From the UHGV virus genome UHGV-0241771: DNA of 38,104 bases; one strand, given 5' to 3'. Of the stretch, positions 3,649 through 21,140 are shown piece after piece (the stretch's first letter is position 1; the number at the start of each line of letters is the position of its first letter). The translations under genes were made by a program, and so were the position numbers. The stretch comes from a virus. The notes below the pieces were generated by a model. The model was given only the letters and a program-made list of their open reading frames with translations, had not been told where the DNA came from and searched no databases.

Positions 3649-3665
3649 AGTCCTGGGGATGTGGC

Positions 3666-4235
3666 ATGATGCCTCAAATGGATAAGGTGACCGTTTTTAA
3701 CCAGGCTTTGGCCCAGTTGGGGGACCGGGAGTATGTGAAGGGTTCCCCAGCCGGTCGCACCGTTGATTTGTGGTGGCCTACCGTGTTGCAGGAAGCGCTG
3801 TTGTTCGGGGCATGGACCTGGGCAACCAAACGGGTTGAGATGGAGCGCTCTGTCATGAGGCATCCGATTCCGGATGATTGCCTGCGCGTGCTGTATGTGG
3901 GGGCGGATTTGTTCCGCATTGAGGGGCGTGATTTGGTGGTTGAGCGTTACGGGAAACGCGCCGCCGGGACCGATAAGCTGGTGGTGGATTATCTTTCCGA
4001 CGAGGTGGCCCGCTCCGAAGTGCTGCCGGATCATAGTCCGTTTTTCATCAAGGGCGTTGTGTTTCTTCTGGCTGGCAGGTGCGCTTTGAAGCTGGCTTCT
4101 TCTCCCCAGCTTGCAGCCGCTTTGGAGGCACAGGGTGAGGCGTTTTTAAGCAAGGCCCTTTATTGGGACACCTGCCAGCATGCTTCCAATGACCAGGATC
4201 CGTTAACAGAGATTTTAAACAGTTCCATTTTCTGA
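3666..4235 (+). CDS. Tail tubular protein A / adaptor, T7 gp11-like
   Basis: N-terminal VTVFNQALAQLG...WTWAT and C-terminal LPDHSPFFIKGVVFLLAGRCALKLA resemble the T7 gp11 pattern. Size is ~190 aa, similar to gp11. Confidence 0.45.
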   Translation: MMPQMDKVTVFNQALAQLGDREYVKGSPAGRTVDLWWPTVLQEALLFGAWTWATKRVEMERSVMRHPIPDDCLRVLYVGADLFRIEGRDLVVERYGKRAAGTDKLVVDYLSDEVARSEVLPDHSPFFIKGVVFLLAGRCALKLASSPQLAAALEAQGEAFLSKALYWDTCQHASNDQDPLTEILNSSIF

Positions 4236-4239: not shown

Positions 4240-4935
4240 ATGAGTTCCGATTTCGGGGTTTCCCAGCAGTATAAGTATCAGGGGCAGGCGGCTTTGAGCA
4301 ACGGGCGCGCCACGCAGGCGGCTTATGAGAAGAAGGCCCGCGCCCTGGAGGCAGAGGCGGTTTCCGATTCCCACCTGGCCGCCCGCAATATGAAGCGGAT
4401 GCGCCAGAATCAGAATACCGCCATGGGGTCTGCACGGGCACAGCGCGGCGGATCCGGTTTTACTTCCGAGGGTTCCGGAAGCCAGGCGGAGGTGGCGGTG
4501 GCGGATGTGTGGGAGAGCGCCATTGGGGATGCGGCCCTTTCCAACGCGGTTTCCGATGCCAATAAGCGGTTTGCCGCGGAGTCCGCCCGATACCAGGGTG
4601 ATCTGGCCATGATGGCGGCACACAGCGAGGCGGACCAGTATAAGATGCTTTCACAGAATGCCCTTGGTTCTGCCATGATTCAGACGGCCCTGACGGTGGC
4701 GGGGGGAGTCATGGGGGCGGCAGGAATGTCCGGTGGAGGATTGCTGGGGGGTGTTACCGAGAGCGGGCAGACGTGGGGTTCCGCCGCCGGGGGATCCCAG
4801 GGGGCTTTTTCCGGGATGATGAATGCTTATTCCCTTTCCGGTTCCCTGGGGGGGATGGTGCCGGGGAGCATGCAGTCTTCCAACAGGTTGAGGGATTCCC
4901 TGCTGGCTAATTTCATGGGTTTTGGAAAGAGATGA
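4240..4935 (+). CDS. Internal virion/ejection protein (gp14 position), Gly-rich C-terminus
   Basis: Tightly packed after the gp11-like gene. Gly/Ser/Met-rich tail (GGVMGAAGMSGGGLLGG). Confidence 0.45.
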   Translation: MSSDFGVSQQYKYQGQAALSNGRATQAAYEKKARALEAEAVSDSHLAARNMKRMRQNQNTAMGSARAQRGGSGFTSEGSGSQAEVAVADVWESAIGDAALSNAVSDANKRFAAESARYQGDLAMMAAHSEADQYKMLSQNALGSAMIQTALTVAGGVMGAAGMSGGGLLGGVTESGQTWGSAAGGSQGAFSGMMNAYSLSGSLGGMVPGSMQSSNRLRDSLLANFMGFGKR

Positions 4936-5273
4936 GCGTTTCTCCCATGCAGCAGGCTTTTTTACTGATGGAAGCCCAGCGCCCCGGCTGGTTCCGGGAG
5001 ACCGTTTCCCTGGCGGATGCGGGAGGCGGGGTCGTGTGGTGCTGCCCTTCGTTGTTTTTTGCGGGGGTGCCAGATCCGGAGTCCCCCAGGACGTTGATTA
5101 TTCTTTTTGCCCACGGCCGCATGGAGGCCGTCAGGGAGCTGGCTTGTCTGGTGCAGGGGCGTTTTGACCGGGCAAGGTGGCAGCGCTGCATCCGCGGACG
5201 CGAGGACTGGAAGGAGATTTCCATCCCAAGGTTTTTAAGTTTTAACCGTTTCAAGATGAACGAAGATGAGTGA
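4932..5273 (+). CDS. Hypothetical small core-region protein (113 aa)
   Basis: ATGA overlap at both ends links it into the structural operon. Confidence 0.4.
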   Translation: MSVSPMQQAFLLMEAQRPGWFRETVSLADAGGGVVWCCPSLFFAGVPDPESPRTLIILFAHGRMEAVRELACLVQGRFDRARWQRCIRGREDWKEISIPRFLSFNRFKMNEDE

Positions 5274-7224
5274 TTTACAGCAACCCTTGTACGGAGGAAC
5301 CCGGATGAATGCGGCTTCCTCCACCCCTTCCCCGATCCAGATGCCGGATGTTTCTTCCAAGCCCGTTCAGAGGGCGCTGCAGAATGCCCAGGAGTTTGTG
5401 TCTGATGTTGCCCACCAGTACCAGCGCATGAAGGATTTCGGCGAGCAGACGCGGCTGGAAGGCCAGATGAATGATTTGGCCAGCGAGTTTGAGCAGGAGA
5501 TAACACGGAGATTGGGGTTTGCCCGCGGTCATGAGCTGTCTTTTTACGATCGTGACGGGAGGCTGAAAGAGAGCGCCCTGAATACGTTTGTGCGGAATTA
5601 CGAAGGGAAGTTCCGCGGGTTGAAGGGAAGTTTTGTTTCCCAGGAGGAGGCTTCCAGGTTCGGAGTCAGAAAGCAGGATGTGATGCGCCGACTCCAGGGG
5701 CGGGCTTCCGAGTTGATGCTTAAGGGGCAGATTCAGGAGTCCAGGCAGGCTTTTGAGGAAGGGTTGAAGGGGGATTTGCTGCGGAGGGATTTCCAGGGAG
5801 CCACCCGTAGGCGCATTCAAGCTTACGAGGCCGGCATTGTTTCTGAGAATGGAATGAACAACGGTATTCTGGAAGATACACGGAACGGCCTTTTGGACGA
5901 ATACGAGCAGGATATGCTGATTAACCCCAGTGTTGCTTTTACGAAGCTTGGAGACGGCTATTTTGATGCTCTGGGCGCAGGAGATGTTTTAAAGCTGAAG
6001 GAGAAGACCAGAAGGTTTTTACGTTCCGCGAACCGCTCCGAAGGTGAAGATGGTGCGCCCGGTTACAGAAAGGGTTCTCTTTGGCCGAAAGCTTCCCTCC
6101 GTTACGGAGCCACGGAGCAGGAATACGACTGGGTGGAGCATTATAACCGGACCGGTAGTTACGGGAAATACGCCCCTTCCATTAAGTTTGCCTTCCGGGA
6201 GGATTTACGGAATCTGCCTCCCGCCAATTCCGGCGAAGAAAGAACGAGGTACGTCAATGACATGTTGAAGAAGTGGGGGCAGTATGGACAGGTTCTTGGA
6301 GATGAAAGGAAGCTGCGCCTGTTTGTAGAAGACCGGATTGACGCCATGGGGAGACCCAATACGAACCGGAATAATATAGAGGCCGTTTTGAAGGCCATGC
6401 CGGATCATGTGTATATTCCTTATTTTTCTTACCAGGTAGCTAATGCTTACAAGAGTGGCGACCAGGAGCAGATTAAGAAGGCAGAGAGTACGCGGGATGA
6501 GGTGGAGGCAGATATTTTGTATAAGACGGAACTTTCCATGACGGAGTGGAGACAGGCTCATCCCAATGCCACACTTGCCCAAGATCTTGCGCAGATCCAT
6601 CAATTTACCGCTTTTCATGCCGGGAACAGGTTTGCCTATCGGCCTATTATTGAAGAAGATAAGAAAAGATCTGACGAGAGCCGCATGAAGAAGGCGCTGG
6701 AGTCCATGCCTTTGTATTCTTTTGAGCAACAGGAAGAGTTGAACGTGTCTCCAGAAGAGAGGGAGGCCCAGCAAAAGAAGGCGGCACAATATATTAAGGG
6801 CCAAAGACCTTATTTGCCTTCCCCTCTTGAGAACCACCCTGTTTCTTTTGTCCGGCATGCTACATCCGGAGCGTATGTTTCCAAGCAGGCTTATGAGGCT
6901 ATCAAGGCTAAGTTTGGGAATAGACCTTTTGCCCGCATTTCTCTGGGACGCAATGGAGCTTTCCTAAGGGTTCCCGTCGTCGGGGTCTATGAGGGAACCC
7001 CGCGGGGAGTTGAGGTTTCAGGACCGCTTTATGAACGCATGGCGTTAAGGTTTCCCGGTGAACAGGCCAGCGGGAATGTCAGCATTTACGACGGGCAGGA
7101 TGAACCGGAAGCGCCGGAAGATGGATACGGACCAGGGTTGCTGCCTCCTTTGCCGGGTGGAGACGATACTTACACGCAGGTGAACGATATTGGCGACTCC
7201 GCCCTTCTTCCTCTTTACCAATAG
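5266..7224 (+). CDS. Internal virion protein (gp15 position), 652 aa
   Basis: Large helical charged protein directly upstream of the giant gp16-position gene. No enzymatic motif seen. Confidence 0.5.
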   Translation: MSDLQQPLYGGTRMNAASSTPSPIQMPDVSSKPVQRALQNAQEFVSDVAHQYQRMKDFGEQTRLEGQMNDLASEFEQEITRRLGFARGHELSFYDRDGRLKESALNTFVRNYEGKFRGLKGSFVSQEEASRFGVRKQDVMRRLQGRASELMLKGQIQESRQAFEEGLKGDLLRRDFQGATRRRIQAYEAGIVSENGMNNGILEDTRNGLLDEYEQDMLINPSVAFTKLGDGYFDALGAGDVLKLKEKTRRFLRSANRSEGEDGAPGYRKGSLWPKASLRYGATEQEYDWVEHYNRTGSYGKYAPSIKFAFREDLRNLPPANSGEERTRYVNDMLKKWGQYGQVLGDERKLRLFVEDRIDAMGRPNTNRNNIEAVLKAMPDHVYIPYFSYQVANAYKSGDQEQIKKAESTRDEVEADILYKTELSMTEWRQAHPNATLAQDLAQIHQFTAFHAGNRFAYRPIIEEDKKRSDESRMKKALESMPLYSFEQQEELNVSPEEREAQQKKAAQYIKGQRPYLPSPLENHPVSFVRHATSGAYVSKQAYEAIKAKFGNRPFARISLGRNGAFLRVPVVGVYEGTPRGVEVSGPLYERMALRFPGEQASGNVSIYDGQDEPEAPEDGYGPGLLPPLPGGDDTYTQVNDIGDSALLPLYQ

Positions 7225-7241: not shown

Positions 7242-10200
7242 ATGTTTGCACAGGATGTTTTTGAGAGGTTGGGGCTGTCCCAAGATATGGATTTATTGAA
7301 AGAACTCCAGAAAGAGGCATTGTCAGAGCCAACGGAAGCGGCGCAGAGTCCCTATATGGATGACCCGGCATATGCCGGTTTTGAGACCTTGCGCGGTTTG
7401 TTTGGTTCCAATCATGGAGATAATCCCTCCATGTATTGGCTGGCACAGGGAAAAGAGATGCCTGAATTTGCCACCGTGGCGGACGCACAGGCTGCCGTCT
7501 GGAAGGATTTCCAGAAAAAAGCCCGTGCTTATCAGGCAGAGCAGGAGCGACAGCAACAGGCACGGGAGGCATTGGCTGCTACGATTGATCCCTTCATTGA
7601 CCGGTACGTGCGCGGGGACACTGTTGTTCCCTCCCCTGAACAGGTAATGATGATGCAGGAGGCGGGCATTTCCTGGGAGAGTGTCAGACGAGCCCGCAGA
7701 GGGATGCAACTTGTCCGGGAATATGACGCGCAGGGCACCCTGTACGACGACAGGATCATCAATAATCTGGCGGAACAGGTGGGAGATGATGAGCTGGCAC
7801 GGCGCATTGTGCTGAATATGTTTTATAATGACGCCAGGAAGTACGCCAAGGATAAGCACGGTGACGAGTGGACCGGGATTGACTGGATAGATAAGGCAGC
7901 CCAAGGGGTAACGGGGATGGTACGCACCGGGGGCGTGAAGGGATGGCGGACAGGTCAGAAGGCCTGGCGGAATTTACAGGTAATGGGAGAGGTGGATGCC
8001 GTTACGAATGCAGCTAAGCGTCTACCGGAGTTGATTGCTTCCGGAATGGATGTGGATGAAGCACGCGCTCAGATTGAGAAGGATGCCACTTTTCTTGAGA
8101 TACGACGCCGCTGGGCTGCCGATCTGGTTGAAACTATGGAAGCCGGGGAAAAGGAATATCTGGAAGGGGAGGACCGTCATTTGGTTGGCCGCATTGGTTC
8201 GCAGCTTGGTTCCATTATCGGAGATACGGCTCCCTGGTTCATTCCTGCCATTGGTCCTGCTATCGGAGCTTCCTCCGCCATGCAATCCCGCAGGGATGAG
8301 GGGGTAAGCATTGGGTTAACGATGGAGGAAACGGAGAAGAGGGCCATGATGTTCGGCCAGGCAGATGCTCTGGAAGAGATGATTGCTTTTTCCCCCATCG
8401 GGCGGTTGACGCCCGGATATAAGTGGTTGAAGAAGGCTCTTGGCGGTGGGAAGGCCGCCGGGAAGCTGGCCCCGTGGCGGGCTCGATGGATGGCGAGTCC
8501 GAAGGCCCAGTACGCTATTCAAGGGCTTTCCGGTGCTGCGGAAGAGGCCATTTTTGAGCCTACAGCCGGGTATTTGATGCGTACTGTACAGAGCATGAAC
8601 CTGACGGACGAACGCGGAAAACAGACTTTCCGTCAGTATTTGGACGATATGGGGCAGATGATGCACGGAGAACAGGGTCTTGCCCTGCTGGCATTTACGT
8701 TTGGGATGTCCGGCTTTAATTATCCTCAAATCAAAAAGGCGGCCCAAGAGTTTGGCCTTTCTTTGCAACATTACAAGGAATTGGGAGGCACGGTCCAGGG
8801 GTATCTGGAAGCCAGGGAGGAAAAGACCGCCGAAGGTTTTTTGAATAAGGCTCTTTCCCATTTGCATGATTCCTGGATGGAGGATCCGCAGGCTTCCATG
8901 GAGCGGGCGAGCGCGGCTGCCGGAGAACGCCTTTCCGGGGAGCGCATTGAGTCTTTGCGGGAGCTGGACGCGTGGCGGGCCGCCGAAGATGCCGGCATGG
9001 TGCCCAGGGTGGAGCCGGCGGAACAGGAGGGGATGTTCCGGGTGTATGCTCCGGCGCGCGGCACGGAAGCGCCGCGGGAGGATGCTTCCGTTTCCGGAGA
9101 GGGACAGGAAGAGGGCGCCCCTTCCTACACGCTGATGGACGGCGAGCAGATGACGGCTTATTTGCAGGCGTTTGTGGATGCCGATATGGAACATGCCATT
9201 GTCGGGGCACAACATTTGCTGGCCGGGGATGTGACCGTGGGCCAGGCCCTGGCCCAGGGGCGTTTTGACGCGGCGGAGGTGATTACGCGCACAGTGACGG
9301 ATGAACAGACAGGGGCCGAACGGGTGGTGATTGCCCCGGAGACGCTGGGGCAGATGAAGGCCCGCGCGGATATGGCGATGGCCGCTATCCGCGCCCTGGA
9401 GGCGGAGGGGGTGAGTTATGAGGAGGCCGCCGCCCGCATGGATGCTTCCCTAAGCGAGCATATTCCGCTGGGGATCCTTGTGCAGACATGGGAGGAATCC
9501 CAGGAACGCATCAGGACGGAACAGGCCCGGAACCTGGAGTTTAAGGCTCCTGCCATGGATGCCCCGTTTTCCAACGCTTATGTGACGAAGGTGCGCCGGG
9601 GAGATACGTTCCGCCGGGTGTTGAGGTATGCCCGCGGGAACGCGACGGTGGAGGATTTGATGGAGGAGACGATGGAACAGGCGGTCATTTCCTGGCAGGC
9701 GGAGCAGGGTTTGTCCTGGGACGAGTTCGGCGCGATGCTCCAAGAGGCGCAGAGGGTGATGATTGAGTTGTTTCCGGAGGCGCGGGGGGAGGAGATGCAG
9801 TTTATTCACCTGGACGCCGGGAAGCCGGTGACGGGTCATGACGCGATTGAGGCGTTTTCCAAAATCGGGCGTTCCCGCTGGCTGGCGGACGCGGTGCGGA
9901 GTACGTCCCTGCCCTCCTGGCTGCGGAATTTGCTGAATCACCTGGTGAGGTTCCTGGGGTATTTTAAGGCGCGCGTGGAGTTGGGCGAGATGGTGCGCCA
10001 GGCGGAGGAACAGGGCGTGTTTTCCCTGCCGGTGCGTCAGGCCCTGGCGGTGATGCTGGATGCGGGGAATGCCCTGTACCGGGACCAGCAGGGGGATTTG
10101 ATGGAGTTGTCCATGGAGCGGGCCAGAGCGCAGGCGGGGCTGGACGCAATGTTTGGCGCGGGCGTGGCGACGGAGGCCCGGACGCTGGAGGATGAGCTGG

Positions 10201-13200
10201 CGGAGAGCAAGGCGCAGGATGAGGAGCGCCGGCAGGAGGCCGAGGATGAGGCGCGGGCGCCGGAGAATTCCCCGGAGGCACAGGAGGCGCGGCGCGAGCG
10301 GGAGCAGGCCCGCGTGGAGGCGCTGGGCGAGCCGGATGGGTCAGGGGTGTTTAACGGGGCGTTTATTGAGGTTCAGGAGGGGGTGCGCCAGGGGTTTATT
10401 GAGAAGTCCCGGCTGACGCTTTGCCCGGATGTGCCCCAGTTTAAGCAGGGGGCGGATGAACAGACCGGGGTGGTGAATCCGATTGTGGGGGCATGGCAGC
10501 GCAATGCCGCGCCGATTTCCGTGTGGAGGCGGAAGGATGGCGCCCTGCAGGTGATCAGCGGCCGGCACCGTTTTAACGCCTGCACGGATGAGGATATTAA
10601 TTGCACGGTGTATGATGAGGCGGCCGGGTTTGATTTGGATTGGGCGCAGACGCATGATGTGGAGAATAATATCCGGGACGGGCAGGCTTCCCTGTTTGAG
10701 ATTGCCCGTTATGTGAGCCGGAAGCGTTTGACGAAGGAGGAGGCGGTGGAGAGGGGGATTTTCCGCAAGGGGCAGTCCCGCCGCGGGGTGGAACTGGGCC
10801 TGTACGGCTGTTCCGATTTGCTGGATGCGCTGGGGAATGAGCTTGTTTCTCCGGATGACGCCTGGCGCGTGGCGATGGCGTTCCGCAATCAGAACGAGGT
10901 GCAGCGGGCCGGGCTGCGTGCCCTGATGGAGGGGAAGAGCTGGCAGGCCGCTTTGGCCGTGATGCAGGTGGCCGCGAATATGGACCGCATCCGCGGGCTG
11001 GCGGAGGCGGCCGGGATGACGTTTGAGACGGATTTGTTCGGCAATTCCCACGCGGAGGAGTATTTTTCAAGGCTGGCCCAGTACGCCGCCGCCCGCGTGA
11101 GCGAGCTGACGAGGGAGATTTCTTCCATTAGCGGGGCGAGCAGACGCCCGGAGACGGCCAGGAAGTATGGCGTGGATGTGAGGGATGCCGCCGCGCTGGA
11201 GGCGGTGGTGAAGGATTTGAAGGCGCAGAGGGCCCAATGGCAGAATTTCGGCCTGCATGAGGAGTTGATTAAGGAGGCCAATGATGCCGTGATGGTGGAG
11301 CTGGGGATGAAGACGCAGGAGGAGGTGGACCGGGAGAACGGCGTGCTTCCTTTGGAGGCGCCGGAACAGGAGGCGGGGTCCGCCGATACGGGGATGTTGC
11401 AGCTTTCCCAGGATGTGAGCCGGATGCTGGATGCGGCGCTGACGAGGGGGGCTGCCCCTGCGGAAGATGAGGCTCCCGCAGCGAATTTTTCCCTGATGTC
11501 CATTTCTTCCGGGGATGTGGTGAGTTCCGCCGCCGGGATGCGGGCGAGGTTGAAACCGTTGCAGGGCAAGGTGTTCGTCAATAAGAATACGGGGATCCAG
11601 GCCGTGATTGAGGCGCGCGTTTCCGGCAAGACGGTGGGCAAGGCCGGGGCTTCACAAATGTCCGTGGCGAATTTGAAGACGCTTGGGTTTTCCGCGGAGG
11701 AGGCCCGGAGGGTTCATTATACGGCGGCCACCCGCATTCATGAGTTGTTTGAGAATGCGGAGGATGGATTTTTTGAAGAGGCGTATAAACAAGATGCCTC
11801 AAAAGCCGGAGCCTATCATTTTTTCAATACAGTAGATATTGAAGGGATAGGAGCGTTTGATGTTAATGTTACAGCAATCAAATACGTTAAGGAACAGGAA
11901 GGTAACGTTCTTTACACGCTGGAATTGACCATAGAAAACCCCGCCACTAGGGGAGCTGCTAGCCGGGAAGGCCGCCTACCTACACCCTTCAAGGACGGGG
12001 TTTCTACCCGTAATTTATCTTCTTACCGTTCTTTTGTCGAGAAGGAAAAGGCGGCTGTCAGGAAGAAGGCGGAGTCTGACGGGACGTTCATGAAGGCTCC
12101 GAATGGGAAGGATACGAATCTGACGGAAGACCAGTGGCTGTCCGTGCGCACGGAGGCGTTTAAGAGTTGGTTTGGCGATTGGGAGCATGACCCGTCCAAT
12201 GCCTCCAAGGTGGTGGACGAGAATGGGGAGCCGCTGGTGGTGTATCATGGTTCTCCGCATGTTTTTACCGTGTTTGACGTGGAGCGTTCCGGAGAGAATT
12301 TTAACCGGAGCCGGGAGGATGGAGGGTTGTTGTTTTTTTCTTCCCTGCCGGAGACGGCGGAAGATGTGCTTTATGATTTAGAGGGCCGTTTTCCGGGGAC
12401 CGGGTTGGAGAGTGCGCGGCTGTATGCGTGTTTTATGAGGTTGAGGCGTCCGTTTATGCTGGATCTTGGCGATGCTTCACAGCGCCCGTTTTCCGGGGAG
12501 GGTGTGCCGGAGAATGTGAAGGGTTCCCCGATGGCGTGGTATTTGTTTCCTCACGAGTTGAGGAGAGGGTTTGATGAGGGGAATGCTCATGGCGCGGGTT
12601 ATGACGGTGTTGTTTTGAAGGGCAAGAATGCTTATGACGGGAGTCCGGAGGTGTGGGGGATGGCTACGGATTCCCGGCAGGTGAAGAGCGCTGTCGATAA
12701 CCGCGGGACGTTTGATTCAGATAGTCCGGATATTACGTTTTCCATTATTGGGGAGAAGGCTGAATCCTTCCAGGAGTACCACAATAACGGCCTTTCCTAC
12801 ACGGATCCGGCGGACGGGAAGCGGAAGGCGATTATTGATTCCCGCGGGGTGCGGTTGAGGAAGGAGCACGTCAGCGTGAGCGAGGGGGGGCATGTGAATG
12901 TTTCCCTGGCCGCGGCCCTGGATTTTCCGGAACTGTTCCGGGCCTACCCGGAGCTGCGGAGGCTGCGGGTGGATTTTTACCGCGACAGCGGGAGCGGCAC
13001 GGGAGGGTTTACCGATCCGCAGGAGCATTATATTGCCGTGAATGTGGCACGGGGCGGAAAGAACGCGGCTCCCGGCATGGTGCTGGATACGATTTTACAC
13101 GAGGTGCAGCATGTGATTCAGGGGTATGAGGGGTTTGCCCAGGGGGCCGGGAGCATGAGCCGGGAGCAGGCGCTTGCTTATCTGGGCGGGAGCATGAGCC

Positions 13201-16200
13201 AGCTGGCGGGCCGGGGCGACGACTGGGCGAAGGCGGCCCTACCCCGCCTGGAGCGGATGAAGCGGGAGCTGGAGGCTGGGACGTTGCAGCCGGCGTTTGT
13301 GTATGTTTTTTCCCACGGGGAGCAGGAGGCGCGGCTGGCCGGGACGTTTGAGAAGAATAGCGAGGGGGTCTTGATGAGCGGGCTGAACGGGTTCCGGCTG
13401 CTGGACGCTCCGCAGTTTTCGATTCCGCTGACGGGGGATATTACGGAGCTTGGCGGCATTACGTTCGGGGCCGGGAGGTTTGGACGGATGGCCGGCAGGG
13501 TTCTGGCTCCGAACGGGGATTGGCTTTACGATGAGATGGTGTTCAGGATGCGGGCCGCCACGCAGCGGTCCGTGAGTAAGCTGCGCCTGTTTGAGACCGG
13601 GGACCGGGAGCGCGGCCTTGAGCTGCTGGCGGAGGCGCAGGAGCTGATTTCCACAGTGGAGCGGTATTTGCCTAATTCTTACGGGTTCGGGCTGGAGCCT
13701 TACAAGATCTGGCTGAATGTGTTTTCCCTGCTTTACGGGAATAGCGGGAAGATGGCGCCGGGCGATGCGGTGGCCAGCGCGTTGGAAGCGATTCCTATGA
13801 GGAGGTGGCCGGAGATTATGGAGGGGAGCATTGGCAAGAGTTTTGTCAATTGGGCGGAGAAGAGGCCGGAGCTGGAGGATGTGGTGGTGGAGGCCCGGAG
13901 GGAGATTGCCGAACGGCAGGCTGATTACGAGCTGGATTCTGCTCCGGACGCGGATAACAGGGCCGCCCTGGCGGCCCGCAAGGGGGTGGAACAGGAGGTG
14001 TGGCGCCGGTTGTTTGAGGAGCACGGGGCCGAGTTTCTGGAGGAGTACGGGGAACAGAAGGTGTTCCGGCTTGTGGGGAAGTTTATGGAGCGCGTGGTGG
14101 AGCAGATTGACCGCTTCCGGAAGGACCGGACGCTGGGGCGCATCCGCCGCGTGGCGGCTTCCGTGGCTCCGCGGACGAGTCCGCAGGGGAAGCCGATGCG
14201 CGGGAAGATGGACGCGGAGAGTTACCGGAGGCTGGAGAGGTGCTTGCGCCTGCTGGAGATGACCGAGAGCCAGTACGATGAGTTTTTCCAGAAGAATTTT
14301 CCGGAGGATGCCGAGGAGGGGAAGAGGTGGGAGGATCTGGCCCCGGATGCGCTGGTGCTGGTGACGCTGCCCGACGCGGAAGGGAGGCTGGAAGAGGTGG
14401 CCGTAACGCAGCGGGAGTTTGAGGTTTACGCCTGTTATGAACGGATGGACGTGAATACCGCGGAGAAGTGCGGCGCGGCCCTTGGAGAATTGATTGCCAC
14501 GTCCCGCCATGCCTGGGAGAACGCAGCGGAGAAGAAGAAGCTGGAGGTTGCCGCCATGGCCGCCCCACTGCTGCAGGCCACCGGGGATTTGGATGATAGC
14601 AGGATGGCGACGTTCCGCCGGAAGGCGAGGCTGCGGGCTTTGCCGAAGAATCCCCTTTCCCTGTTTGATTACCTGATGAATTTTAATCAGTATATGCAGG
14701 CGCTTTCTTCCGTGGAGCCGTTTGCCGGGGTTGCCCGCCAGTTTGAGGAACGGGCGGCGCGGTTTAATGTGCAGCGGCAGGCGAGCGAGAAGGAGATGCT
14801 GCGTTTTGTGCATCATACCGTAGCGGAGATTGCGGGGTCCGCGGACCGGTATGATATTGCCGAGTGGATTTATGAGGGGCGCATGAAGCAGGATACGGGG
14901 ATTTCTGTTGTGGAGCGGGAGCCGTATTGGAACAGGAAAGCAAACGCCCTGTACCGGGAACGCCTTCTTCATTTGCTGCGCCGGAAGGTGAAGTCCCACG
15001 GGCTGGAAGCGGTGCAGCTTTATTTGAGGGAGTTTAAGCTTTCCGAGGGTTTGAAGAAGGAGGTGGACGCCCTGTTCGGGCACCGCCGCAAGGATATTTC
15101 CGCCAAGCAGGCGAAGAAGGCATTGGAGCACATGGAGCGCGTGTTTACGCAGAAGGAGTGGGAGCGGTACGGGGACCAGAATGTTTTTGTGAGGGAGCGG
15201 GCGGAGATGCTGCGATCCAGGACGAAGTATGCCAAGGAGGGGTATCAGCCGAAGAGTTTCCGGCTGGATGGCCTGTCCCGGATGGAGGCGGCGTATTTGG
15301 TGCTGTTGTCCGAGCAGGCGGATTATACCGAGGCCCTGGCGGAACGCGGGTTTGACGCGGAGGTGATGGACCGGCTGCGCGGGTTTGCCGGGGATGAGGT
15401 GATGCGGTTTGCTTACGCCTTGAGAGAGAAATTGAATGAACGGAGCGGACAGGTGCAGGAGATGACCGAGAGGCGCTACGGCTCACCGTTTCCGCTGACG
15501 GAGAATTATTTCCGGGCGTTTTTCGATGTGACGATGGAGGCGATTGATAAGTCGATTGCTGATGCGGCGTCTTACGGGGAAGCGGCCACAGGCGGGAAGT
15601 TCGGGTTGATTCACGCCCGCCGGAAGCATCAGGCGCACCTGGATTTGGAGATGGATGTTTGCACGGCGTTTATGGCGGCCATGACCGAGCAGGATCTTTA
15701 CCTGTATGGTTCCGAGATCAGCCGTGATTTGCGGGCCCTGCTGAATTTTAAGGGTGAGGATGGCGAGGCGGGCCGGAGCCTGGAGGTGCTGTTGGGGCGG
15801 GATGCCGTGGGCAAGCTGATGGCCTGGGCGGATGCGTTTGACCGCGCCGGGGCGGAGAGTATCCGGGGGCACCTGGATATGAACCGCCTGATGAACCGGC
15901 TTTCCGGCGCGGCGGCGCGGGTGCTGCTGGCCGGGCGCGTGGGGACGCTGACCAAGCAGGTGACGACGGTGATTAACGCGATGTATGCTTCCGACGAGAT
16001 TGGCCTTGCCGAGTGGCTGGGGGCCGTCCGCCGGTATCACGCCGGGAAGCTGGTGAAGCCTGTGCGCGAGATAGAGGTTCTGCCGGAGCTGGACAGCCGC
16101 GACAAGACGCGGTTCAGTGCTACGCTGGCTGCCATGGGGGCCGACGAGGCCGGGCGCCGGGTGTCCCGCCTGGAACGCTGGAACCGGGAGGGGATGGATT

Positions 16201-17027
16201 TGCTGGAGCGGGTGGATATGAAGGGGAATGCGATTTCCGCGGCTATTTTGTACGATGCGGTTTACCGGAAGATGAAGCGTGAGACGCCGGACGCTACGGA
16301 GGCCGAGCTTGACGCGGCCGCCATGGCGGAGGTGCGGCGCTCCCTGTCCCGCAAGGGTCAGCCGATGACGCAGCTGCAGAAGTCCCTGGCCGCGCAGCAC
16401 CGGACCTGGATGCAGGCGGGGATGTTGTTCCTGGGCGGCGAGTCAATCAATACGATGGGCAATGTGTTTTCCCTGGCCCGCAGCGGGCAATGGGGGAAGG
16501 CCGGGTTGATGTGGGTTTCTCACGGGATGGTGCTGGCCCTTCTGAATGGACTGCTTAATTTCATGACCGATGACGAGAAGCGCCGCCGGAAGCGGGAGTG
16601 GTGGCACGCCCTGTTTGATGTGGTGATGGGGCCCGTGATGGGGATTCCTGTAGTAAGCGGGCTGGCTGGTGAGGGCGTGAGGCAGCTTGCGAAGCTGTGC
16701 GGGTATCATGCTTTTATGCCGGGGAATAATTTGCTGGTGCCGTTTTCTAATGCGGCGGATATCGGGAAGGCGTTTTCCAACGCCTGGAAGTTGTTTGACG
16801 GCAAGGAACGGCCCTGGGAGGATGACGCCCTTTCTTTCCACGAGCTTTTACGCACCGCAGCAGCGGGGACGGTGGCTTTTTCTCCACGGACAACCAAGGG
16901 GGGCGCCGCTGCTGTAGGAGCCGCCCTGACGATGGCGCTTCTGCTGAATGTGACGGAGTTTGCCCTTAAAACAGTCCGCAGCGTTCAGGAGAACGGTGCG
17001 GACTGGGATAAGTGGGTCGGAAGATGA
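7242..17027 (+). CDS. Giant 3261-aa polyvalent virion protein (gp16 position) with ParB-like nuclease, ADP-ribosyltransferase-like and HExxH zincin modules plus C-terminal membrane helices
   Basis: Single uninterrupted 9.8-kb ORF. DGALQVISGRHRFNA at ~10.54 kb is a ParB/Srx GxxR motif. VVYHGSPHVFTVFDVE at ~12.24 kb resembles the PARP/diphtheria-class H-G-S ART motif. LDTILHEVQHVIQGYEG is at ~13.1 kb. Hydrophobic helices at 16.40-16.69 kb and 16.89-16.95 kb. Confidence 0.8.
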   Translation: MFAQDVFERLGLSQDMDLLKELQKEALSEPTEAAQSPYMDDPAYAGFETLRGLFGSNHGDNPSMYWLAQGKEMPEFATVADAQAAVWKDFQKKARAYQAEQERQQQAREALAATIDPFIDRYVRGDTVVPSPEQVMMMQEAGISWESVRRARRGMQLVREYDAQGTLYDDRIINNLAEQVGDDELARRIVLNMFYNDARKYAKDKHGDEWTGIDWIDKAAQGVTGMVRTGGVKGWRTGQKAWRNLQVMGEVDAVTNAAKRLPELIASGMDVDEARAQIEKDATFLEIRRRWAADLVETMEAGEKEYLEGEDRHLVGRIGSQLGSIIGDTAPWFIPAIGPAIGASSAMQSRRDEGVSIGLTMEETEKRAMMFGQADALEEMIAFSPIGRLTPGYKWLKKALGGGKAAGKLAPWRARWMASPKAQYAIQGLSGAAEEAIFEPTAGYLMRTVQSMNLTDERGKQTFRQYLDDMGQMMHGEQGLALLAFTFGMSGFNYPQIKKAAQEFGLSLQHYKELGGTVQGYLEAREEKTAEGFLNKALSHLHDSWMEDPQASMERASAAAGERLSGERIESLRELDAWRAAEDAGMVPRVEPAEQEGMFRVYAPARGTEAPREDASVSGEGQEEGAPSYTLMDGEQMTAYLQAFVDADMEHAIVGAQHLLAGDVTVGQALAQGRFDAAEVITRTVTDEQTGAERVVIAPETLGQMKARADMAMAAIRALEAEGVSYEEAAARMDASLSEHIPLGILVQTWEESQERIRTEQARNLEFKAPAMDAPFSNAYVTKVRRGDTFRRVLRYARGNATVEDLMEETMEQAVISWQAEQGLSWDEFGAMLQEAQRVMIELFPEARGEEMQFIHLDAGKPVTGHDAIEAFSKIGRSRWLADAVRSTSLPSWLRNLLNHLVRFLGYFKARVELGEMVRQAEEQGVFSLPVRQALAVMLDAGNALYRDQQGDLMELSMERARAQAGLDAMFGAGVATEARTLEDELAESKAQDEERRQEAEDEARAPENSPEAQEARREREQARVEALGEPDGSGVFNGAFIEVQEGVRQGFIEKSRLTLCPDVPQFKQGADEQTGVVNPIVGAWQRNAAPISVWRRKDGALQVISGRHRFNACTDEDINCTVYDEAAGFDLDWAQTHDVENNIRDGQASLFEIARYVSRKRLTKEEAVERGIFRKGQSRRGVELGLYGCSDLLDALGNELVSPDDAWRVAMAFRNQNEVQRAGLRALMEGKSWQAALAVMQVAANMDRIRGLAEAAGMTFETDLFGNSHAEEYFSRLAQYAAARVSELTREISSISGASRRPETARKYGVDVRDAAALEAVVKDLKAQRAQWQNFGLHEELIKEANDAVMVELGMKTQEEVDRENGVLPLEAPEQEAGSADTGMLQLSQDVSRMLDAALTRGAAPAEDEAPAANFSLMSISSGDVVSSAAGMRARLKPLQGKVFVNKNTGIQAVIEARVSGKTVGKAGASQMSVANLKTLGFSAEEARRVHYTAATRIHELFENAEDGFFEEAYKQDASKAGAYHFFNTVDIEGIGAFDVNVTAIKYVKEQEGNVLYTLELTIENPATRGAASREGRLPTPFKDGVSTRNLSSYRSFVEKEKAAVRKKAESDGTFMKAPNGKDTNLTEDQWLSVRTEAFKSWFGDWEHDPSNASKVVDENGEPLVVYHGSPHVFTVFDVERSGENFNRSREDGGLLFFSSLPETAEDVLYDLEGRFPGTGLESARLYACFMRLRRPFMLDLGDASQRPFSGEGVPENVKGSPMAWYLFPHELRRGFDEGNAHGAGYDGVVLKGKNAYDGSPEVWGMATDSRQVKSAVDNRGTFDSDSPDITFSIIGEKAESFQEYHNNGLSYTDPADGKRKAIIDSRGVRLRKEHVSVSEGGHVNVSLAAALDFPELFRAYPELRRLRVDFYRDSGSGTGGFTDPQEHYIAVNVARGGKNAAPGMVLDTILHEVQHVIQGYEGFAQGAGSMSREQALAYLGGSMSQLAGRGDDWAKAALPRLERMKRELEAGTLQPAFVYVFSHGEQEARLAGTFEKNSEGVLMSGLNGFRLLDAPQFSIPLTGDITELGGITFGAGRFGRMAGRVLAPNGDWLYDEMVFRMRAATQRSVSKLRLFETGDRERGLELLAEAQELISTVERYLPNSYGFGLEPYKIWLNVFSLLYGNSGKMAPGDAVASALEAIPMRRWPEIMEGSIGKSFVNWAEKRPELEDVVVEARREIAERQADYELDSAPDADNRAALAARKGVEQEVWRRLFEEHGAEFLEEYGEQKVFRLVGKFMERVVEQIDRFRKDRTLGRIRRVAASVAPRTSPQGKPMRGKMDAESYRRLERCLRLLEMTESQYDEFFQKNFPEDAEEGKRWEDLAPDALVLVTLPDAEGRLEEVAVTQREFEVYACYERMDVNTAEKCGAALGELIATSRHAWENAAEKKKLEVAAMAAPLLQATGDLDDSRMATFRRKARLRALPKNPLSLFDYLMNFNQYMQALSSVEPFAGVARQFEERAARFNVQRQASEKEMLRFVHHTVAEIAGSADRYDIAEWIYEGRMKQDTGISVVEREPYWNRKANALYRERLLHLLRRKVKSHGLEAVQLYLREFKLSEGLKKEVDALFGHRRKDISAKQAKKALEHMERVFTQKEWERYGDQNVFVRERAEMLRSRTKYAKEGYQPKSFRLDGLSRMEAAYLVLLSEQADYTEALAERGFDAEVMDRLRGFAGDEVMRFAYALREKLNERSGQVQEMTERRYGSPFPLTENYFRAFFDVTMEAIDKSIADAASYGEAATGGKFGLIHARRKHQAHLDLEMDVCTAFMAAMTEQDLYLYGSEISRDLRALLNFKGEDGEAGRSLEVLLGRDAVGKLMAWADAFDRAGAESIRGHLDMNRLMNRLSGAAARVLLAGRVGTLTKQVTTVINAMYASDEIGLAEWLGAVRRYHAGKLVKPVREIEVLPELDSRDKTRFSATLAAMGADEAGRRVSRLERWNREGMDLLERVDMKGNAISAAILYDAVYRKMKRETPDATEAELDAAAMAEVRRSLSRKGQPMTQLQKSLAAQHRTWMQAGMLFLGGESINTMGNVFSLARSGQWGKAGLMWVSHGMVLALLNGLLNFMTDDEKRRRKREWWHALFDVVMGPVMGIPVVSGLAGEGVRQLAKLCGYHAFMPGNNLLVPFSNAADIGKAFSNAWKLFDGKERPWEDDALSFHELLRTAAAGTVAFSPRTTKGGAAAVGAALTMALLLNVTEFALKTVRSVQENGADWDKWVGR

Positions 17028-17199
17028 ATCCGGTGAAGACGGTAGCGGATGTGATGGATTGAAGGCACATTCACTTGTGTCATTACATTAACATATCATA
17101 ATGAATGTTTTATAAAAAATAATATGTTTTTTAGTTGCAGAAATAAAAGAATGATGTTCTAATCCTCTTGACGTCGGAGGTTTGTCCTTCCCGGACAAG

Positions 17200-17236
17200 C
17201 GTCTGCCTTATGGTAAGGCCGACGTCTATTTTTATA
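17200..17236 (+). terminator. Intrinsic terminator between the convergent giant gene and the DUF3800-like gene
   Basis: Hairpin cgtctgcctta-tgg-taaggccgacg (10/11 bp) followed by TCTATTTTTAT. Confidence 0.5.
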
Positions 17237-18059
17237 CCCTTTTTCTGGGGGGATAAGAAATCCGCGTAACTCCAGATGATGTCTGTTTACGCACGCCTGA
17301 ATGTTGTTTTTTAACAGGTCCCCCAATCCAGCGCAGGGTGTTATGAATTCTACCGGAGTTGTCTTTCCACGAATAAAAGCAGTTTTCCAGTTGGGAGTAG
17401 AGTGGCATGATCGGAGCAAATTCCGCAACTCTCAATCCAATGATGGTAGTGACAATGTCTGCTATTTGGATACCTATGTTTTTAGCTTGAGATATGGCAA
17501 ACATAGGTATTTCAAGAATAGAGGACCTCATCTGACTACCAGGAGCGCTTTTGACAAGGAAATTGGTAATGGCAGCTGCATTCCTACCGTTTGTTCCATC
17601 ATCCCGGTTGTCAATAATGATGATGGCTTTTCTCCCATAATGTTCCCGCTTCATATAGATGTTGATACGTTCACAGAGACTTTTGAATGTAGCATCAAGA
17701 ACACCAGTGTCCTTGCAAGAAAAACTTTGCATGGCTTGGTCAAAACAGACACACCCAAATACCGTAATTTTACTTTTTTTTAGGAATTGGAGAATGGATT
17801 CAATGAGTTTGACGTTAGTTGAACCTTCTGGGTACATCTCGTGTTGTTTGAAGGAGGTTCGAGATAAAAGATTTTTTCCCTTCAGTTCAGAGTTGTCCGC
17901 GTAGTCTTTTCCAAGATGTTGAAGTTTTAATTTATAGATGGTATTGGCAATTTTTGTGTAGTCTCCAATAGGGATAGCTACCCCGCACATAGCTCCAAAT
18001 TTATGTTTTTCTCCCCCTCTATCCAGTTCTCTAAATGTTTCATCCAAGAAAATCAACAT
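17232..18059 (-). CDS. DUF3800-like protein, predicted acidic-triad nuclease (moron)
   Basis: N-terminal MLIFLDETF (xFxDES-like), AIIIIDNRDDG and IQIADIV acidic motifs. Convergent with the structural operon. Own divergent promoter region. Confidence 0.5.
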   Translation of the reverse strand: MLIFLDETFRELDRGGEKHKFGAMCGVAIPIGDYTKIANTIYKLKLQHLGKDYADNSELKGKNLLSRTSFKQHEMYPEGSTNVKLIESILQFLKKSKITVFGCVCFDQAMQSFSCKDTGVLDATFKSLCERINIYMKREHYGRKAIIIIDNRDDGTNGRNAAAITNFLVKSAPGSQMRSSILEIPMFAISQAKNIGIQIADIVTTIIGLRVAEFAPIMPLYSQLENCFYSWKDNSGRIHNTLRWIGGPVKKQHSGVRKQTSSGVTRISYPPRKRV

Positions 18060-18357
18060 ACCAATTATTTATGTGTTTTATATACCTAAAGTCCCGACTT
18101 TCTAAATGGGCGTCACATTCCTTTGCAAGGCGGCGACAACGGATGAAAAACTAAATGAAAAAGGGTACAACCTCAAGGAAATATTGCACAACTATTTTTG
18201 TGATATACTATATATTGTGGCATTATCCTTGATTTCAAGGAATATTTTTATTGTCTTGCGTGATTTTTTTGTCTAGTACTTGGCTTCATGTTCGTCCGAC
18301 TGGTTGTCAAATACTTGAGGACTTGAGTTTTTGAGGATATAGGAATACCTTGGAGAA

Positions 18358-19050
18358 ATGAAAGGTTTACTGATTGCCATTTGCGTTTTCCTGGGGCTGG
18401 CATTGTTGCCGATGCCCTACGGCTATTATATGTTCCTGCGGTTGGCTGTGTGTGCTTACGCCATATTTGTGTTTACCCAGGAGCAGAAGAAAGGGGTGTG
18501 TTTCGGGAGCGTATCCGCTGCCGCTATTGCTCTGCTTTACAATCCCGTCTTCCGGGTGCATTTGGAGAAGGAGGTCTGGATGTGGGTGAATGTAATAACC
18601 ATATTATTATTCATCATTGTCTCGTTGCCATGGAGAGAGTTTGCAGAGACAAGAAGAGAACGAACAAGGAAACTTAAAGAGGAAGCAGAGAAAAGGAATG
18701 AGGAAAAATTTTATGGAGTGTATTATAAATATTTTAAAAGTAATTTTCTTCTTCCGAATTACTGTGTAAGATGTAAAGAAACTATAGACATATCTACAAG
18801 CAAAGATTTATTATGTCCTTTTTGTTATCAAAAAGTTCAAGAATTTATAGAGCAAGAAGAGAATGAATTTACGAAGACGGGAAATCTTCCCATGAAATTG
18901 AATTTCAAATGTAAACATTGTGGGGCGGAAGAAAGAACAAGATCGTTTACATTTGGATTTTGCAAACCATGTTATTGGTCTCTTTGCGAACTTGAGTCAA
19001 TCGCGAAGAAAGATTTAAAAGGCTATGAGCGATATAAAAAAACATGCTAG
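18358..19050 (+). CDS. Membrane protein with 3 N-terminal TM helices and C-terminal double zinc ribbon (4x CxxC)
   Basis: CVRC...CPFC and CKHC...CKPC motifs. Lys/Glu-rich linker. N-terminal TM region is GC-rich (about 18358-18650) and the rest AT-rich (possible chimera). Confidence 0.45.
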   Translation: MKGLLIAICVFLGLALLPMPYGYYMFLRLAVCAYAIFVFTQEQKKGVCFGSVSAAAIALLYNPVFRVHLEKEVWMWVNVITILLFIIVSLPWREFAETRRERTRKLKEEAEKRNEEKFYGVYYKYFKSNFLLPNYCVRCKETIDISTSKDLLCPFCYQKVQEFIEQEENEFTKTGNLPMKLNFKCKHCGAEERTRSFTFGFCKPCYWSLCELESIAKKDLKGYERYKKTC

Positions 19051-19266
19051 CTATAAAAAAAGCAAGAACGGATAAAGAAAAAATCTATTGGCGGCCAGCA
19101 TGAAAATAATACTAACAGGAAGCTCTACCAATTGGGTTAGCCATTCATGAAAAGTTTATATAACAGATAGTTTTTTAATTTTTATTATTTTATATTTTAT
19201 TATAACGATTATTACTGCACTATATCTGACAACAACTGTTATAAGATAATTACTACAAAAGACGAT

Positions 19267-19743
19267 TTACAAAACCGCATAAATACAACCAACAATTGTT
19301 ATAATAGGAGCAAACCAAACTACCAGACCACCAGCTAGATATGATGCTCTATGACTAAATGTTCCATATAAAGCAATCCCTAATGATGTATCATAACTTC
19401 CATACATTTGTTTAGTTGCTTGATAGATACCGTTTGAAATAGATAGAGCATAAGTCATGATTAGTAACATAATTGGAATAAGTTCTAGACCTGAATAAAA
19501 GTATATCGCTGCAACATAAAACGAACTGATATAAAGAAGTATACTAATACTTGCTATGAACACTTGAAGACCGGGAGCCTTTTGTCCAAATACATACGCA
19601 TTGATAAGTTCCGGTATAGAGAGTATGAGATTCGCTATAGGCAACACAGCCAAGAGAATGAAGATGATAGCAGGTACATAGAGGCCGATGCAGAATGCCC
19701 AGATAAGTCCAACGAGTGAAATAGGGAGAAGAATAAGGATCAT
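19267..19743 (-). CDS. Polytopic membrane protein (158 aa, 4-5 TM)
   Basis: Last gene of the minus-strand operon 20800->19267. Very hydrophobic and AT-rich. Confidence 0.45.
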   Translation of the reverse strand: MILILLPISLVGLIWAFCIGLYVPAIIFILLAVLPIANLILSIPELINAYVFGQKAPGLQVFIASISILLYISSFYVAAIYFYSGLELIPIMLLIMTYALSISNGIYQATKQMYGSYDTSLGIALYGTFSHRASYLAGGLVVWFAPIITIVGCIYAVL

Positions 19744-19767
19744 AGTTTTAAATTGCGCTGATTTTGT

Positions 19768-20055
19768 TTATTTTGCCCCGCCACAAATCTTGCAGTTCAC
19801 ACCGCTGGGTGTATCGCTGGCTCGCCCTTTGCAAGCCCGGTAGTACCGGCAACCTTTGTTATGGGTCTTGCCCGTTGAGCTGATCCAGTACGCTTTTTCT
19901 TCCGCTGTTGGCTTGGCTGCCGGTTTCCGGTGGTAGTGGTATTCCCCTGTTTTGCGGTTGTAGTGACCGCCGTTGGCGTCCAGGCCGCCAGGGTGTGCGC
20001 CTGCAAGGGGAGTGAGAGAGATGAGTATTAAGGGAAGGAGTGAGGTTATTTTCAT
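19768..20055 (-). CDS. Secreted YHYH-motif protein with Cys-rich C-terminus
   Basis: Signal peptide MKITSLLPLILISLTPLAGA. GGHYNRKTGEYHYH motif. C-terminal CRYYRACKG...CKICGG. Confidence 0.5.
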   Translation of the reverse strand: MKITSLLPLILISLTPLAGAHPGGLDANGGHYNRKTGEYHYHRKPAAKPTAEEKAYWISSTGKTHNKGCRYYRACKGRASDTPSGVNCKICGGAK

Positions 20056-20435
20056 GGCATTTTGAGATAGATATGGGTTGCATCCAGTTTCCAGGCTCCA
20101 TCACTTGCCAGACCGACGGCAGGCAATAGAAGGAGACATCCGCCCACTGCGTCAAGGATGCCTGTGGTTGAAATGCTGTAGTCAATAGCGGCGCAAGCGG
20201 TGCGGTTTCCTTTGGTGGCCGTAATGGCGTGACTTTCTCCTTTGGAGAGTTGCACTGTGGCCTGTCCCTGCCCCAAATAAACGCCGTCCGCACGAATTTC
20301 CGCGTCTTTTTCCGAGGCCGTGATGGTGACGGGCTGCTTTCCTTTAACAAGGAGAGAGCATGAGGATAGAAGAGGGAGGGTAACGGTCAGAAGAGCGACC
20401 GTTACCCAAGAGAGCAGTCTCTGTTGAGAGAACAT
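20052..20435 (-). CDS. Lipoprotein (127 aa)
   Basis: Lipobox LLSSC after a hydrophobic h-region. 4-bp overlap with the downstream gene. Confidence 0.45.
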   Translation of the reverse strand: MFSQQRLLSWVTVALLTVTLPLLSSCSLLVKGKQPVTITASEKDAEIRADGVYLGQGQATVQLSKGESHAITATKGNRTACAAIDYSISTTGILDAVGGCLLLLPAVGLASDGAWKLDATHIYLKMP

Positions 20436-20443
20436 GAGAGGGT

Positions 20444-20800
20444 TTAATTTTTTCTCATGATGGGGTCACCTTCCGCGACGAAGGATTCCTGCCCGTAAAT
20501 GAAGGGTATGTAAAACCATTTCCGTTCAAGCGTAGCATTGGAGAGACCAACACAGTTTGGACCGTTTTTTTCAATGGCGTTATCAATGGCTTCTTTCATG
20601 TCAGGAATGCCTGTTGGGAAGAAGATGATGATATGTTTTTTGTCTTCCCCTTTAGAACGAACGTTGTAAGTGGTGGTATACCCGGCGGTGTGCTTCAGGT
20701 CCATGTTTTTGGTGGAGGCGACGGTGAGGTCCGCCACACGGGTGGTGCACGAGACGGCCAGGAGAACGGAGCCAGCTAACAGCAAGTGTTTTATCTTCAT
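20444..20800 (-). CDS. Lipoprotein (118 aa)
   Basis: Signal peptide with lipobox LAVSC. First gene of the operon. AT-rich promoter region 20801-20925. Confidence 0.45.
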   Translation of the reverse strand: MKIKHLLLAGSVLLAVSCTTRVADLTVASTKNMDLKHTAGYTTTYNVRSKGEDKKHIIIFFPTGIPDMKEAIDNAIEKNGPNCVGLSNATLERKWFYIPFIYGQESFVAEGDPIMRKN

Positions 20801-21119: not shown

Positions 21120-21140
21120 TGAATATAGTAAAGGGAGGTG

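Follow-up and report, generated by a model that had tools for sequence, protein, structure and literature searches.

Phage polyvalent proteins, which combine unrelated effector and enzyme domains in one polypeptide, are encoded among virion genes, and both packaging and injection are predicted for them; P1 DdrB and N4 vRNAP provide precedents for the processing or packaging of giants that bear a metallopeptidase (MPTase) (PMC5512222). In phi24B, mass spectrometry detected the LPD-bearing gp47 (2811 amino acids (aa)) in virions; the protein cannot be seen in the reconstruction, and its proposed role is that of an encapsidated ejection protein that forms a periplasmic conduit (bioRxiv 10.64898/2026.04.10.717836). 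Analogues of T7 gp14, gp15 and gp16 are assigned by size, synteny and C-terminal transmembrane (TM) helices, since their sequences diverge beyond recognition, and the TM regions of T7 gp16 are globular inside the capsid and refold into the inner membrane (PMC8954989). Here we analyzed a 38,104-nucleotide (nt) stretch of viral DNA, the UHGV virus genome UHGV-0241771 (the window), in which one giant gene (7242..17027, plus strand) encodes 3261 aa plus a stop codon and is read here as a polyvalent protein of the internal-virion or ejection type. All features of this gene lie on the plus strand.

Taking at least two unrelated effector or enzyme domains in one polypeptide as the mark of a polyvalent protein, the giant protein was found to contain an ADP-ribosyltransferase (ART) of the ART-PolyVal family, a ParB fold, a zincin-like domain and LPD3. 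The original prediction of a polyvalent-type protein was thus borne out, with ART-PolyVal above the Pfam gathering score and LPD3 above its cutoff on a tile. As in the described phage proteins, a ParB-superfamily domain, an ART of the H-Y-D clade, an HExxH MPTase and an LPD domain are joined, the domains are exchangeable and the gene is encoded among late virion genes (PMC5512222). Unlike those proteins, the giant has a ParB module without Pfam recognition and a zincin without an above-threshold Pfam model, and ~2200 aa, comprising its N-terminal region and C-terminal module, match no LPD or other Pfam family. The word 'transmembrane' is absent from the main text of PMC5512222, whereas the giant has a C-terminal hydrophobic hairpin. 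The giant protein family is a new, well-delimited branch of the described polyvalent class and not a new kind of system. Both polyvalent proteins and giant encapsidated ejection proteins are already in the literature as concepts; the advance therefore lies in a family of at least 277 clusters and in its chassis-plus-slot anatomy rather than in a principle.

Gene integrity and family architecture

The open reading frame (ORF) 7242-17027 of 3261 aa was recovered as predicted by both the ORF listing and translation, with an ATG start and 3261 uninterrupted codons followed by a stop. More than 1100 database protein clusters match it, and full-length copies of the gene at 84-99% identity are present in Akkermansia muciniphila assemblies, including a 2.8-Mb chromosome. 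In a codon-level comparison with the 85%-identical CP025823.1 allele, the ratio of nonsynonymous to synonymous change (dN/dS) was 0.10-0.51 in every 250-codon window. The frame is therefore not a chance opening in GC-rich DNA, and the giant ORF is a real gene under purifying selection along its whole length. The three motifs named in the original prediction were all located where they had been placed: SGRHR at aa 1106-1110 (nt 10557-10571), VVYHGS at aa 1666-1671 (nt 12237-12254) and HEVQH at aa 1953-1957 (nt 13098-13112). The gene also shows a strong sustained GC skew of +0.20 to +0.30 across 7242-17027, and its GC content is raised (up to 0.64) relative to the remaining late operon.

With the complete protein, no match was obtained in a PDB sequence search or against NCBIfam, and tblastn with aa 1-3000 against 50,697 phage genomes gave matches only in the ParB and ART/zincin parts. 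The family was delimited through the C-terminal module (aa 2062-3261, 13425..17024; core aa 2677-3251), its most widely conserved part. An exhaustive HMMER search of this module against 1.84 billion representatives retrieved 277 clusters at E<1e-3, 90 of them at E<1e-30, and nearly all matches were giant proteins of 2200-6081 aa aligned at their extreme C-terminus. The upper length, 6081 aa, is reached by one family member. Named members all belong to Verrucomicrobiota (Akkermansia spp., A. glycaniphila and Prosthecobacter debontii); two further matches in metagenome-assembled genomes of Bacteroidales may be binning errors.

Sharing of each region was counted in the 150 best family representatives. 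The core (aa 2677-3250) is shared by ~120 of them and aa 2200-2676 by 57-87, followed by the ParB module (~54), the zincin (~43) and aa ~300-1040 (21-49), while only 9-22 share aa 1400-1800, which hold LPD3 and ART. In A. muciniphila, all indels and replacements map between aa ~1240 and ~1850: variants have aa 1242-1348 deleted, aa 1403-1645 replaced, ~170 aa inserted near aa 1646 or ~300 aa inserted after aa 1838. On these alignments, the family consists of a conserved chassis (N-terminal region, ParB-helix-turn-helix (HTH), zincin and helical C-terminus) and one cargo slot. The original prediction had suggested that the two unannotated stretches of ~1000 aa may hide further effectors. This did not hold up: the stretches belong to the conserved family backbone and the C-terminal 1200 aa are confidently predicted to be all-alpha. 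Because they are conserved across the family and variation is confined to aa ~1400-1830, they are better read as scaffold than as hidden effectors. The N-terminal region (aa 1-1039, 7242..10358) has no known domain and contains weakly hydrophobic Gly-rich segments at aa 325-343 and ~479-497.

Chassis modules and the exchangeable cassette

The original prediction placed ParB-like, ART-like and zincin modules in the giant; profile hidden Markov model (HMM) and structure searches found a ParB fold and an ART, and showed the zincin motif to be invariant with sub-threshold profile matches. The ParB/Noc/KorB-like module (aa 1040-1370, 10359..11351) is composed of an N-domain and HTH followed by a helical extension. 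An AlphaFold2 model was built for aa 1040-2062 from 24 family members; in it, this region had a predicted local distance difference test score (pLDDT) of 85-95. The best 14 PDB matches in Foldseek were all ParB, Noc or KorB (6t1f, 7bnr, 7ng0, 7nfu, 6sdk, 7o0n, 7bm8 and 8qa8 among them), with probabilities of 0.99-1.0 and E values of 8e-4 to 9e-3. Some 215 columns were aligned, and the match therefore spans the ParB N-domain together with the HTH domain; in the model, aa ~1040-1260 superpose on the cytidine triphosphate-binding N-domain plus HTH of chromosomal and plasmid ParB, Noc and KorB (6t1f, 7bnr, 7ng0, 6sdk and 8qa8). The GxxR arginine box of these proteins is kept in the giant. In 64 sequences, the box DG.L.VISGRHR is conserved at G1100 (100%), G1107 (98%), R1108 (91%), H1109 (86%) and R1110 (91%).

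In contrast to ParB, Noc and KorB themselves, the giant's module is only 13-18% identical to them, has neither a ParA partner nor parS context and is embedded in a 3261-aa virion-type protein. Neither a tile search for ParB-family Pfam domains at E<10 nor a PDB sequence search with the ParB profile gave a match. The predicted ParB-like module therefore stands as to fold and GxxR box, but it is not the Pfam DdrB-type ParB of the Iyer catalogue. Vibrio phage 1.211.A and Shewanella phage X14 each encode a giant protein in which the ParB module of ~290 aa was likewise detected; the Vibrio version is 34% identical (E 6e-41).

The zincin-like metallopeptidase (aa 1885-2035, 12894..13346) was delimited from motifs, the AlphaFold2 model and sub-threshold Pfam matches. 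H1953, E1954, Q1956, H1957, Q1960, E1963 and G1968 in the HExxH region are invariant in 60 sequences, and a GExEAR motif ~70 aa downstream (GEQEAR here, nt 13317-13334) is near-invariant. The region was modelled with a pLDDT of 80-93, with strands preceding the long HExxH helix. When 12 trimmed domains were compared with Pfam, only sub-threshold matches were obtained, mostly to metallopeptidase families: DUF6782 in 9 of the 12 (best 1e-5), Peptidase_M78 in four, SprT-like in two, and YgjP, DUF2268, eCIS_core and PhageMetallopep in one domain each. We accept the region as a putative zincin-like peptidase of an uncurated family. The predicted HExxH zincin is supported by the motif and a downstream Glu that are invariant across the family, with Pfam support staying below threshold. 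Some relatives carry two tandem zincin-like domains (members P0154, P0190, P0130, P0193 and P0180 were examined).

Between these two chassis modules lies the variable cassette (aa ~1400-1830, 11439..12731), which holds LPD3 and ART-PolyVal in the window and is replaced, deleted or expanded in relatives. LPD3 (PF18798; aa 1438-1535, 11553..11846) scored 25.4 bits on the whole protein and 29.9 bits on a 261-aa tile (cutoff 27), and was above the cutoff in relatives. ART-PolyVal with a conserved N-terminal extension occupies aa 1606-1830 (12057..12731; PF18760, phrog_30335). The Pfam domain was aligned at aa 1659-1824 over the full profile (1-140), with E 8e-15 and 56.2 bits against a cutoff of 31.2. 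The extension (APNG...WFGDW...DENGEP, with WFGDW at nt 12168-12182) and a C-terminal QxKSAxxNxGxFD motif (nt 12678-12716) are near-invariant in 29-32 family sequences. The ART-PolyVal clade is described as H-Y-D (PMC5512222). The His is H1669 in VVYHGS and is 97% conserved, whereas the strand-2 aromatic is F1698 (F in 63% and Y in 23% of the family) and the alignment of the acidic residue is ambiguous, with E1803 as a candidate. The ART module predicted from an H-G-S pattern was borne out by the Pfam score above the gathering cutoff. In a Pfam census of 15 diverse members, ART-PolyVal was found in six, DUF6782 in five, PBECR5 in four, LPD3 in four and MuF-C in two; in some family members it is PBECR5 or MuF-C nucleases, or a second zincin, that sit in the variable slot.

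The C-terminal module was modelled by AlphaFold2 as an all-alpha body with a pLDDT of 84.8 and a predicted template modelling score of 0.78. Foldseek comparison of this model with the PDB gave nothing significant (best E 0.088, template modelling score ~0.1), and the module is thus a large, confidently predicted helical fold without a solved relative. Its core had been suspected of being a divergent LPD38, from the C-terminal LPD38 of the Vibrio and X14 giants; this was rejected, with no HMM or hhalign signal.

Near the end of the module, hydropathy identified a hydrophobic helical hairpin (aa 3087-3105 and 3123-3142, 16500..16667), a candidate membrane-insertion element, and a third hydrophobic helix (aa 3224-3242, 16911..16967). 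The Kyte-Doolittle peaks at nt 16500-16556, 16608-16667 and 16911-16967 agree with the two hydrophobic clusters originally placed at 16.40-16.69 and 16.89-16.95 kb. The hairpin helices stay hydrophobic when averaged over ~128 aligned family members, aa 3224-3242 less so. The hairpin helices flank a loop, acidic and then basic (TDDEKRRRKRE, nt 16566-16598), whose pattern is so well conserved that it could be used for searching.

Comparison with the CP025823.1 allele revealed a recombination breakpoint inside the giant gene. Up to aa 2250 the two proteins are nearly identical, with a proportion of synonymous differences (pS) of 0.02-0.05. The remainder (aa 2250-3261; diverged part ~13990-17024) shows a pS of 0.4-0.7, a proportion of nonsynonymous differences of 0.22-0.38 and a dN/dS of ~0.3, and is still constrained. 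A near-identical front followed by a diverged C-terminus indicates that at least two old C-terminal alleles were recombined onto the same front end; two such alleles circulate in A. muciniphila prophages.

Relation to ejection proteins and proposed role

The giant gene is the last of the head-tail/ejection block, after the adaptor and three small or medium genes. Its position resembles that of T7 gp16, P22 gp16 and epsilon15 gp15-17: it is the last and largest gene of the internal-protein block and follows gp14- and gp15-sized genes. The product is also, as in gp16-type proteins, largely alpha-helical with hydrophobic helices near its C-terminus, and a peptidoglycan hydrolase is associated with the block. 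Differing from T7 gp16 (1318 aa), it is 2.5 times longer (a ratio of 2.47, as the original prediction of ~2.5 had it), carries enzymatic effectors and has no transglycosylase, the hydrolase being on a neighbour protein in sister prophages. As to the C-terminal TM helices by which gp16-like proteins are recognized, aa 3087-3105, 3123-3142 and 3224-3242 are predicted, with moderate hydrophobicity.

No sequence or fold similarity was detected between the giant and the ejection proteins of T7 (gp16), epsilon15 or phi24B. With jackhmmer profiles of five segments, T7 gp13-16 and the phi24B giant ORF gave no match and the Vibrio and X14 giants matched in the ParB module only, and hhalign comparison of the five-segment profiles with T7 gp14-16, epsilon15 gp13-17, phi24B and Vibrio proteins stayed below 10% probability throughout. 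Since there is no such similarity, gp16 is a positional analogy and not a family membership. The predicted gp16 slot thus holds for position, last in the block after gp14- and gp15-sized genes, but not for resemblance to T7 gp16 itself; as an analogy, the assignment draws on position, size rank, helical content and terminal hydrophobic helices.

Other giants are partial counterparts. Like phi24B gp47, the Akkermansia giant is an LPD-bearing protein with a metallopeptidase from a short-tailed temperate phage. The phi24B giant ORF in HM208303 (2807 aa) has no detectable sequence relationship to it, the gp47 domains differ (LPD5, LPD1, LPD38 and MuF-C), and the phi24B gene is located at the end of the genome, a long way from the portal block, whereas the Akkermansia gene closes the ejection block. 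NVP1211A_14 of Vibrio phage 1.211.A (2715 aa) and gp1 of Shewanella phage X14 (2740 aa) have the ParB/HTH module in common with the giant. They combine it with an N6-adenine methyltransferase and LPD38, lack ART and show no match to the C-terminal module or the zincin. Head-completion genes precede the Vibrio gene and SGNH-esterase genes come after it; in X14 the very next gene encodes the tailspike.

We favor, with moderate confidence, a model in which the polyvalent protein is packaged, is ejected and additionally contributes to the DNA path. Packing in the virion and injection with the DNA are probable by analogy with the systems above. A few copies would be packed in the capsid together with three upstream-encoded proteins of 231, 113 and 652 aa, with the C-terminal hairpin buried in a soluble helical bundle, and would leave through the portal and nozzle before or together with the DNA. 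On infection, in the manner proposed for T7 gp16, the hairpin would refold so as to enter the inner membrane and would anchor or line the DNA path. The ParB/HTH module may hold the end of the entering genome or, alternatively, DNA of the host or of a rival, and might do so in a nucleoside triphosphate (NTP)-dependent manner. The ART would modify a host protein early in infection, and the zincin could cut the polyprotein into working pieces, attack a host target, or both.

Several points weigh against this proposal. A 3261-aa protein must traverse a narrow tail channel. The ART active site appears, from its alignment, incomplete by the H-Y-D rule (F1698 and the ambiguous acidic residue), the ART region was modelled poorly by AlphaFold2 (pLDDT ~30), and the zincin matches no solved structure in PDB profile searches or Foldseek. 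The hairpin helices are moderately hydrophobic (Kyte-Doolittle 1.5-1.7) and are packed by AlphaFold2 inside the bundle; the 'TM' helices may therefore simply be core helices. That moderate hydropathy, together with burial in a confident, soluble-looking bundle, would suit a protein that only carries injected effectors, with the 231-, 113- and 652-aa proteins forming the channel and the C-terminus serving as core helices or as a capsid-targeting or assembly domain. N4 vRNAP and P1 DarB/DdrB are likewise injected cargo and not channel parts (PMC5512222), and three further candidate ejection proteins are encoded just upstream. Such a carrier is a possible but rather unlikely alternative, given that the C-terminal module is the family's most conserved part and is always terminal, that the hairpin and its basic loop are conserved in ~128 sequences, and that every gp16-like protein reviewed has TM helices at its C-terminus, in a globular state within the virion (PMC8954989).

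A second alternative is a protein that never enters the particle: a late cytoplasmic factor in anti-defence, host takeover or inter-element conflict, or a toxin-like factor that the prophage retains. Conflict genes typically swap cassettes, and the giant gene abuts a low-GC accessory region that starts at ~17.1 kb. We nevertheless consider this improbable. The gene shares strand, GC content and tight spacing (17 nt) with the structural genes, gene order is invariant in all prophages inspected, a separate promoter-sized gap is absent, phage polyvalent proteins are consistently virion-linked (PMC5512222), and a soluble enzyme would hardly be expected to have a conserved helical tail of 1200 aa that includes a hairpin. 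Another account starts from the fact that no tail fibre, tailspike or other receptor-binding protein was recognizable anywhere in the window (Pfam, PHROGs and tblastn), and holds that the giant is, or includes, the absent appendage; a tailspike gene comes shortly after the last ejection gene in epsilon15, as it does after the giant in X14. The two thirds of the protein that were modelled are mainly alpha-helices and enzyme domains, their models contain no beta-helix, collagen or fibre repeat, and no Pfam or PHROG tail match was obtained, which makes this account very improbable.

A more specific form of the favored ejected-protein model is offered as a rather doubtful speculation. In this so far unrecognized, modular Verrucomicrobia podophage 'ejection-protein chassis', one polypeptide would combine an inner-membrane DNA conduit or anchor (the 1200-aa helical module, of novel structure, with its refolding hairpin) with an NTP-gated ParB-like clamp on the incoming genome end and a slot for anti-host enzymes, which the built-in protease would release. 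If so, the divergent C-terminal alleles might reflect an arms race with superinfection-exclusion or envelope factors. The prophage family is widespread in genomes of A. muciniphila, a key commensal of the human gut. Were the giant injected, an ADP-ribosyltransferase, a ParB-type DNA-binding module and a protease would be delivered at the first moment of infection, and the exchangeable cassette would show which host functions these phages target. The family also offers a natural test of how podophages fuse a gp16-like channel job with effector delivery.

Companion genes and prophage context

The three companion genes (231, 113 and 652 aa; 4240..7224, plus strand) keep their order beside the giant gene and are presumed to encode ejection or internal virion proteins. 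The 231-aa protein is Gly/Ala-rich with one hydrophobic segment. The 652-aa gene (5266-7224) ends 17 nt before the giant gene, and its product has homologues of 853-866 aa in sister Akkermansia prophages that carry a glucosaminidase (PF01832), at ~76% identity over about one third of the query. A peptidoglycan hydrolase is thus swapped on and off this ejection-type family. The glucosaminidase parallels the peptidoglycan hydrolase on T7 gp16 and may be compared with the transglycosylase-like HHpred note in the epsilon15 gp15 record. A tblastn search with the five upstream proteins gave no match.

The window is a temperate podophage of A. muciniphila of the epsilon15/T7 type, and its closest characterized relatives are epsilon15-type temperate podophages rather than T7. 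Its endolysin region is 92.6% identical to the counterpart in Akkermansia phage Chantilly, and the portal is of T7 type (PF12236). The 941-aa protein at 33097-35922 matches the solved tail nozzle 8ck1_A (E 2.6e-49) and also epsilon15 gp12. The nozzle gene sits between TerS and TerL, far from the portal and adaptor genes, an arrangement that neither T7 nor epsilon15 has. ORF 3567-4235 has weak similarity to epsilon15 gp11 (adaptor); its mechanical TTG start lies 35-40 codons upstream of the likely start (MMPQMDKV...), and gene callers give the adaptor gene of sister prophages as 189 aa. Other genes in the window encode an S24 repressor, SieB, RecT, an exonuclease, a methyltransferase, a replication initiator, TerS and TerL.

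In all integrated prophages inspected that have an identical portal, the order is portal-90-251-189-231-108/113-652-giant (in aa), where the 251-aa protein is protease/scaffold-like and the 189-aa protein is the adaptor; the accessory and lysogeny region comes after the giant gene. Neither a major capsid protein gene nor an integrase was found in the window. In the identical-portal sister prophages, a block with attL (a tRNA 3' fragment), an integrase, Phage_capsid_2 (330 aa), a ~680-aa gene and small ORFs stands directly upstream of the endolysin. In the window (37553-38104 and 1-548), TerL is followed by an 88-nt attachment (att)-like piece (37691-37778) and 288 unmatched nt, and the window end continues seamlessly into its start, with the endolysin ORF spanning the junction. 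The window therefore behaves as a circular molecule or assembly without ~5.4 kb, an absence that could be due to a deletion variant, an episomal form or an assembly shortcut. Three candidates for the absent capsid protein were considered and rejected: the 652-aa protein, whose family gains the glucosaminidase; a 322-aa minus-strand ORF, which is a membrane/coiled-coil moron; and the N-terminus of the giant protein. A true Phage_capsid_2 gene is present in sister prophages and not in the window.

Two accessory islands of low GC content (0.38-0.44, versus 0.55-0.64 in the structural genes) are located at 17100-25000 and at 32038-33006 (minus strand). The first contains DUF3800, DUF6804 plus a zinc ribbon, DUF2971, the S24 repressor and SieB, and the second consists of the 322-aa membrane/coiled-coil ORF (phrog_8999) between TerS and the nozzle gene. 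Sister prophages carry other cargo in these islands, including HicA and a cytosine methylase.

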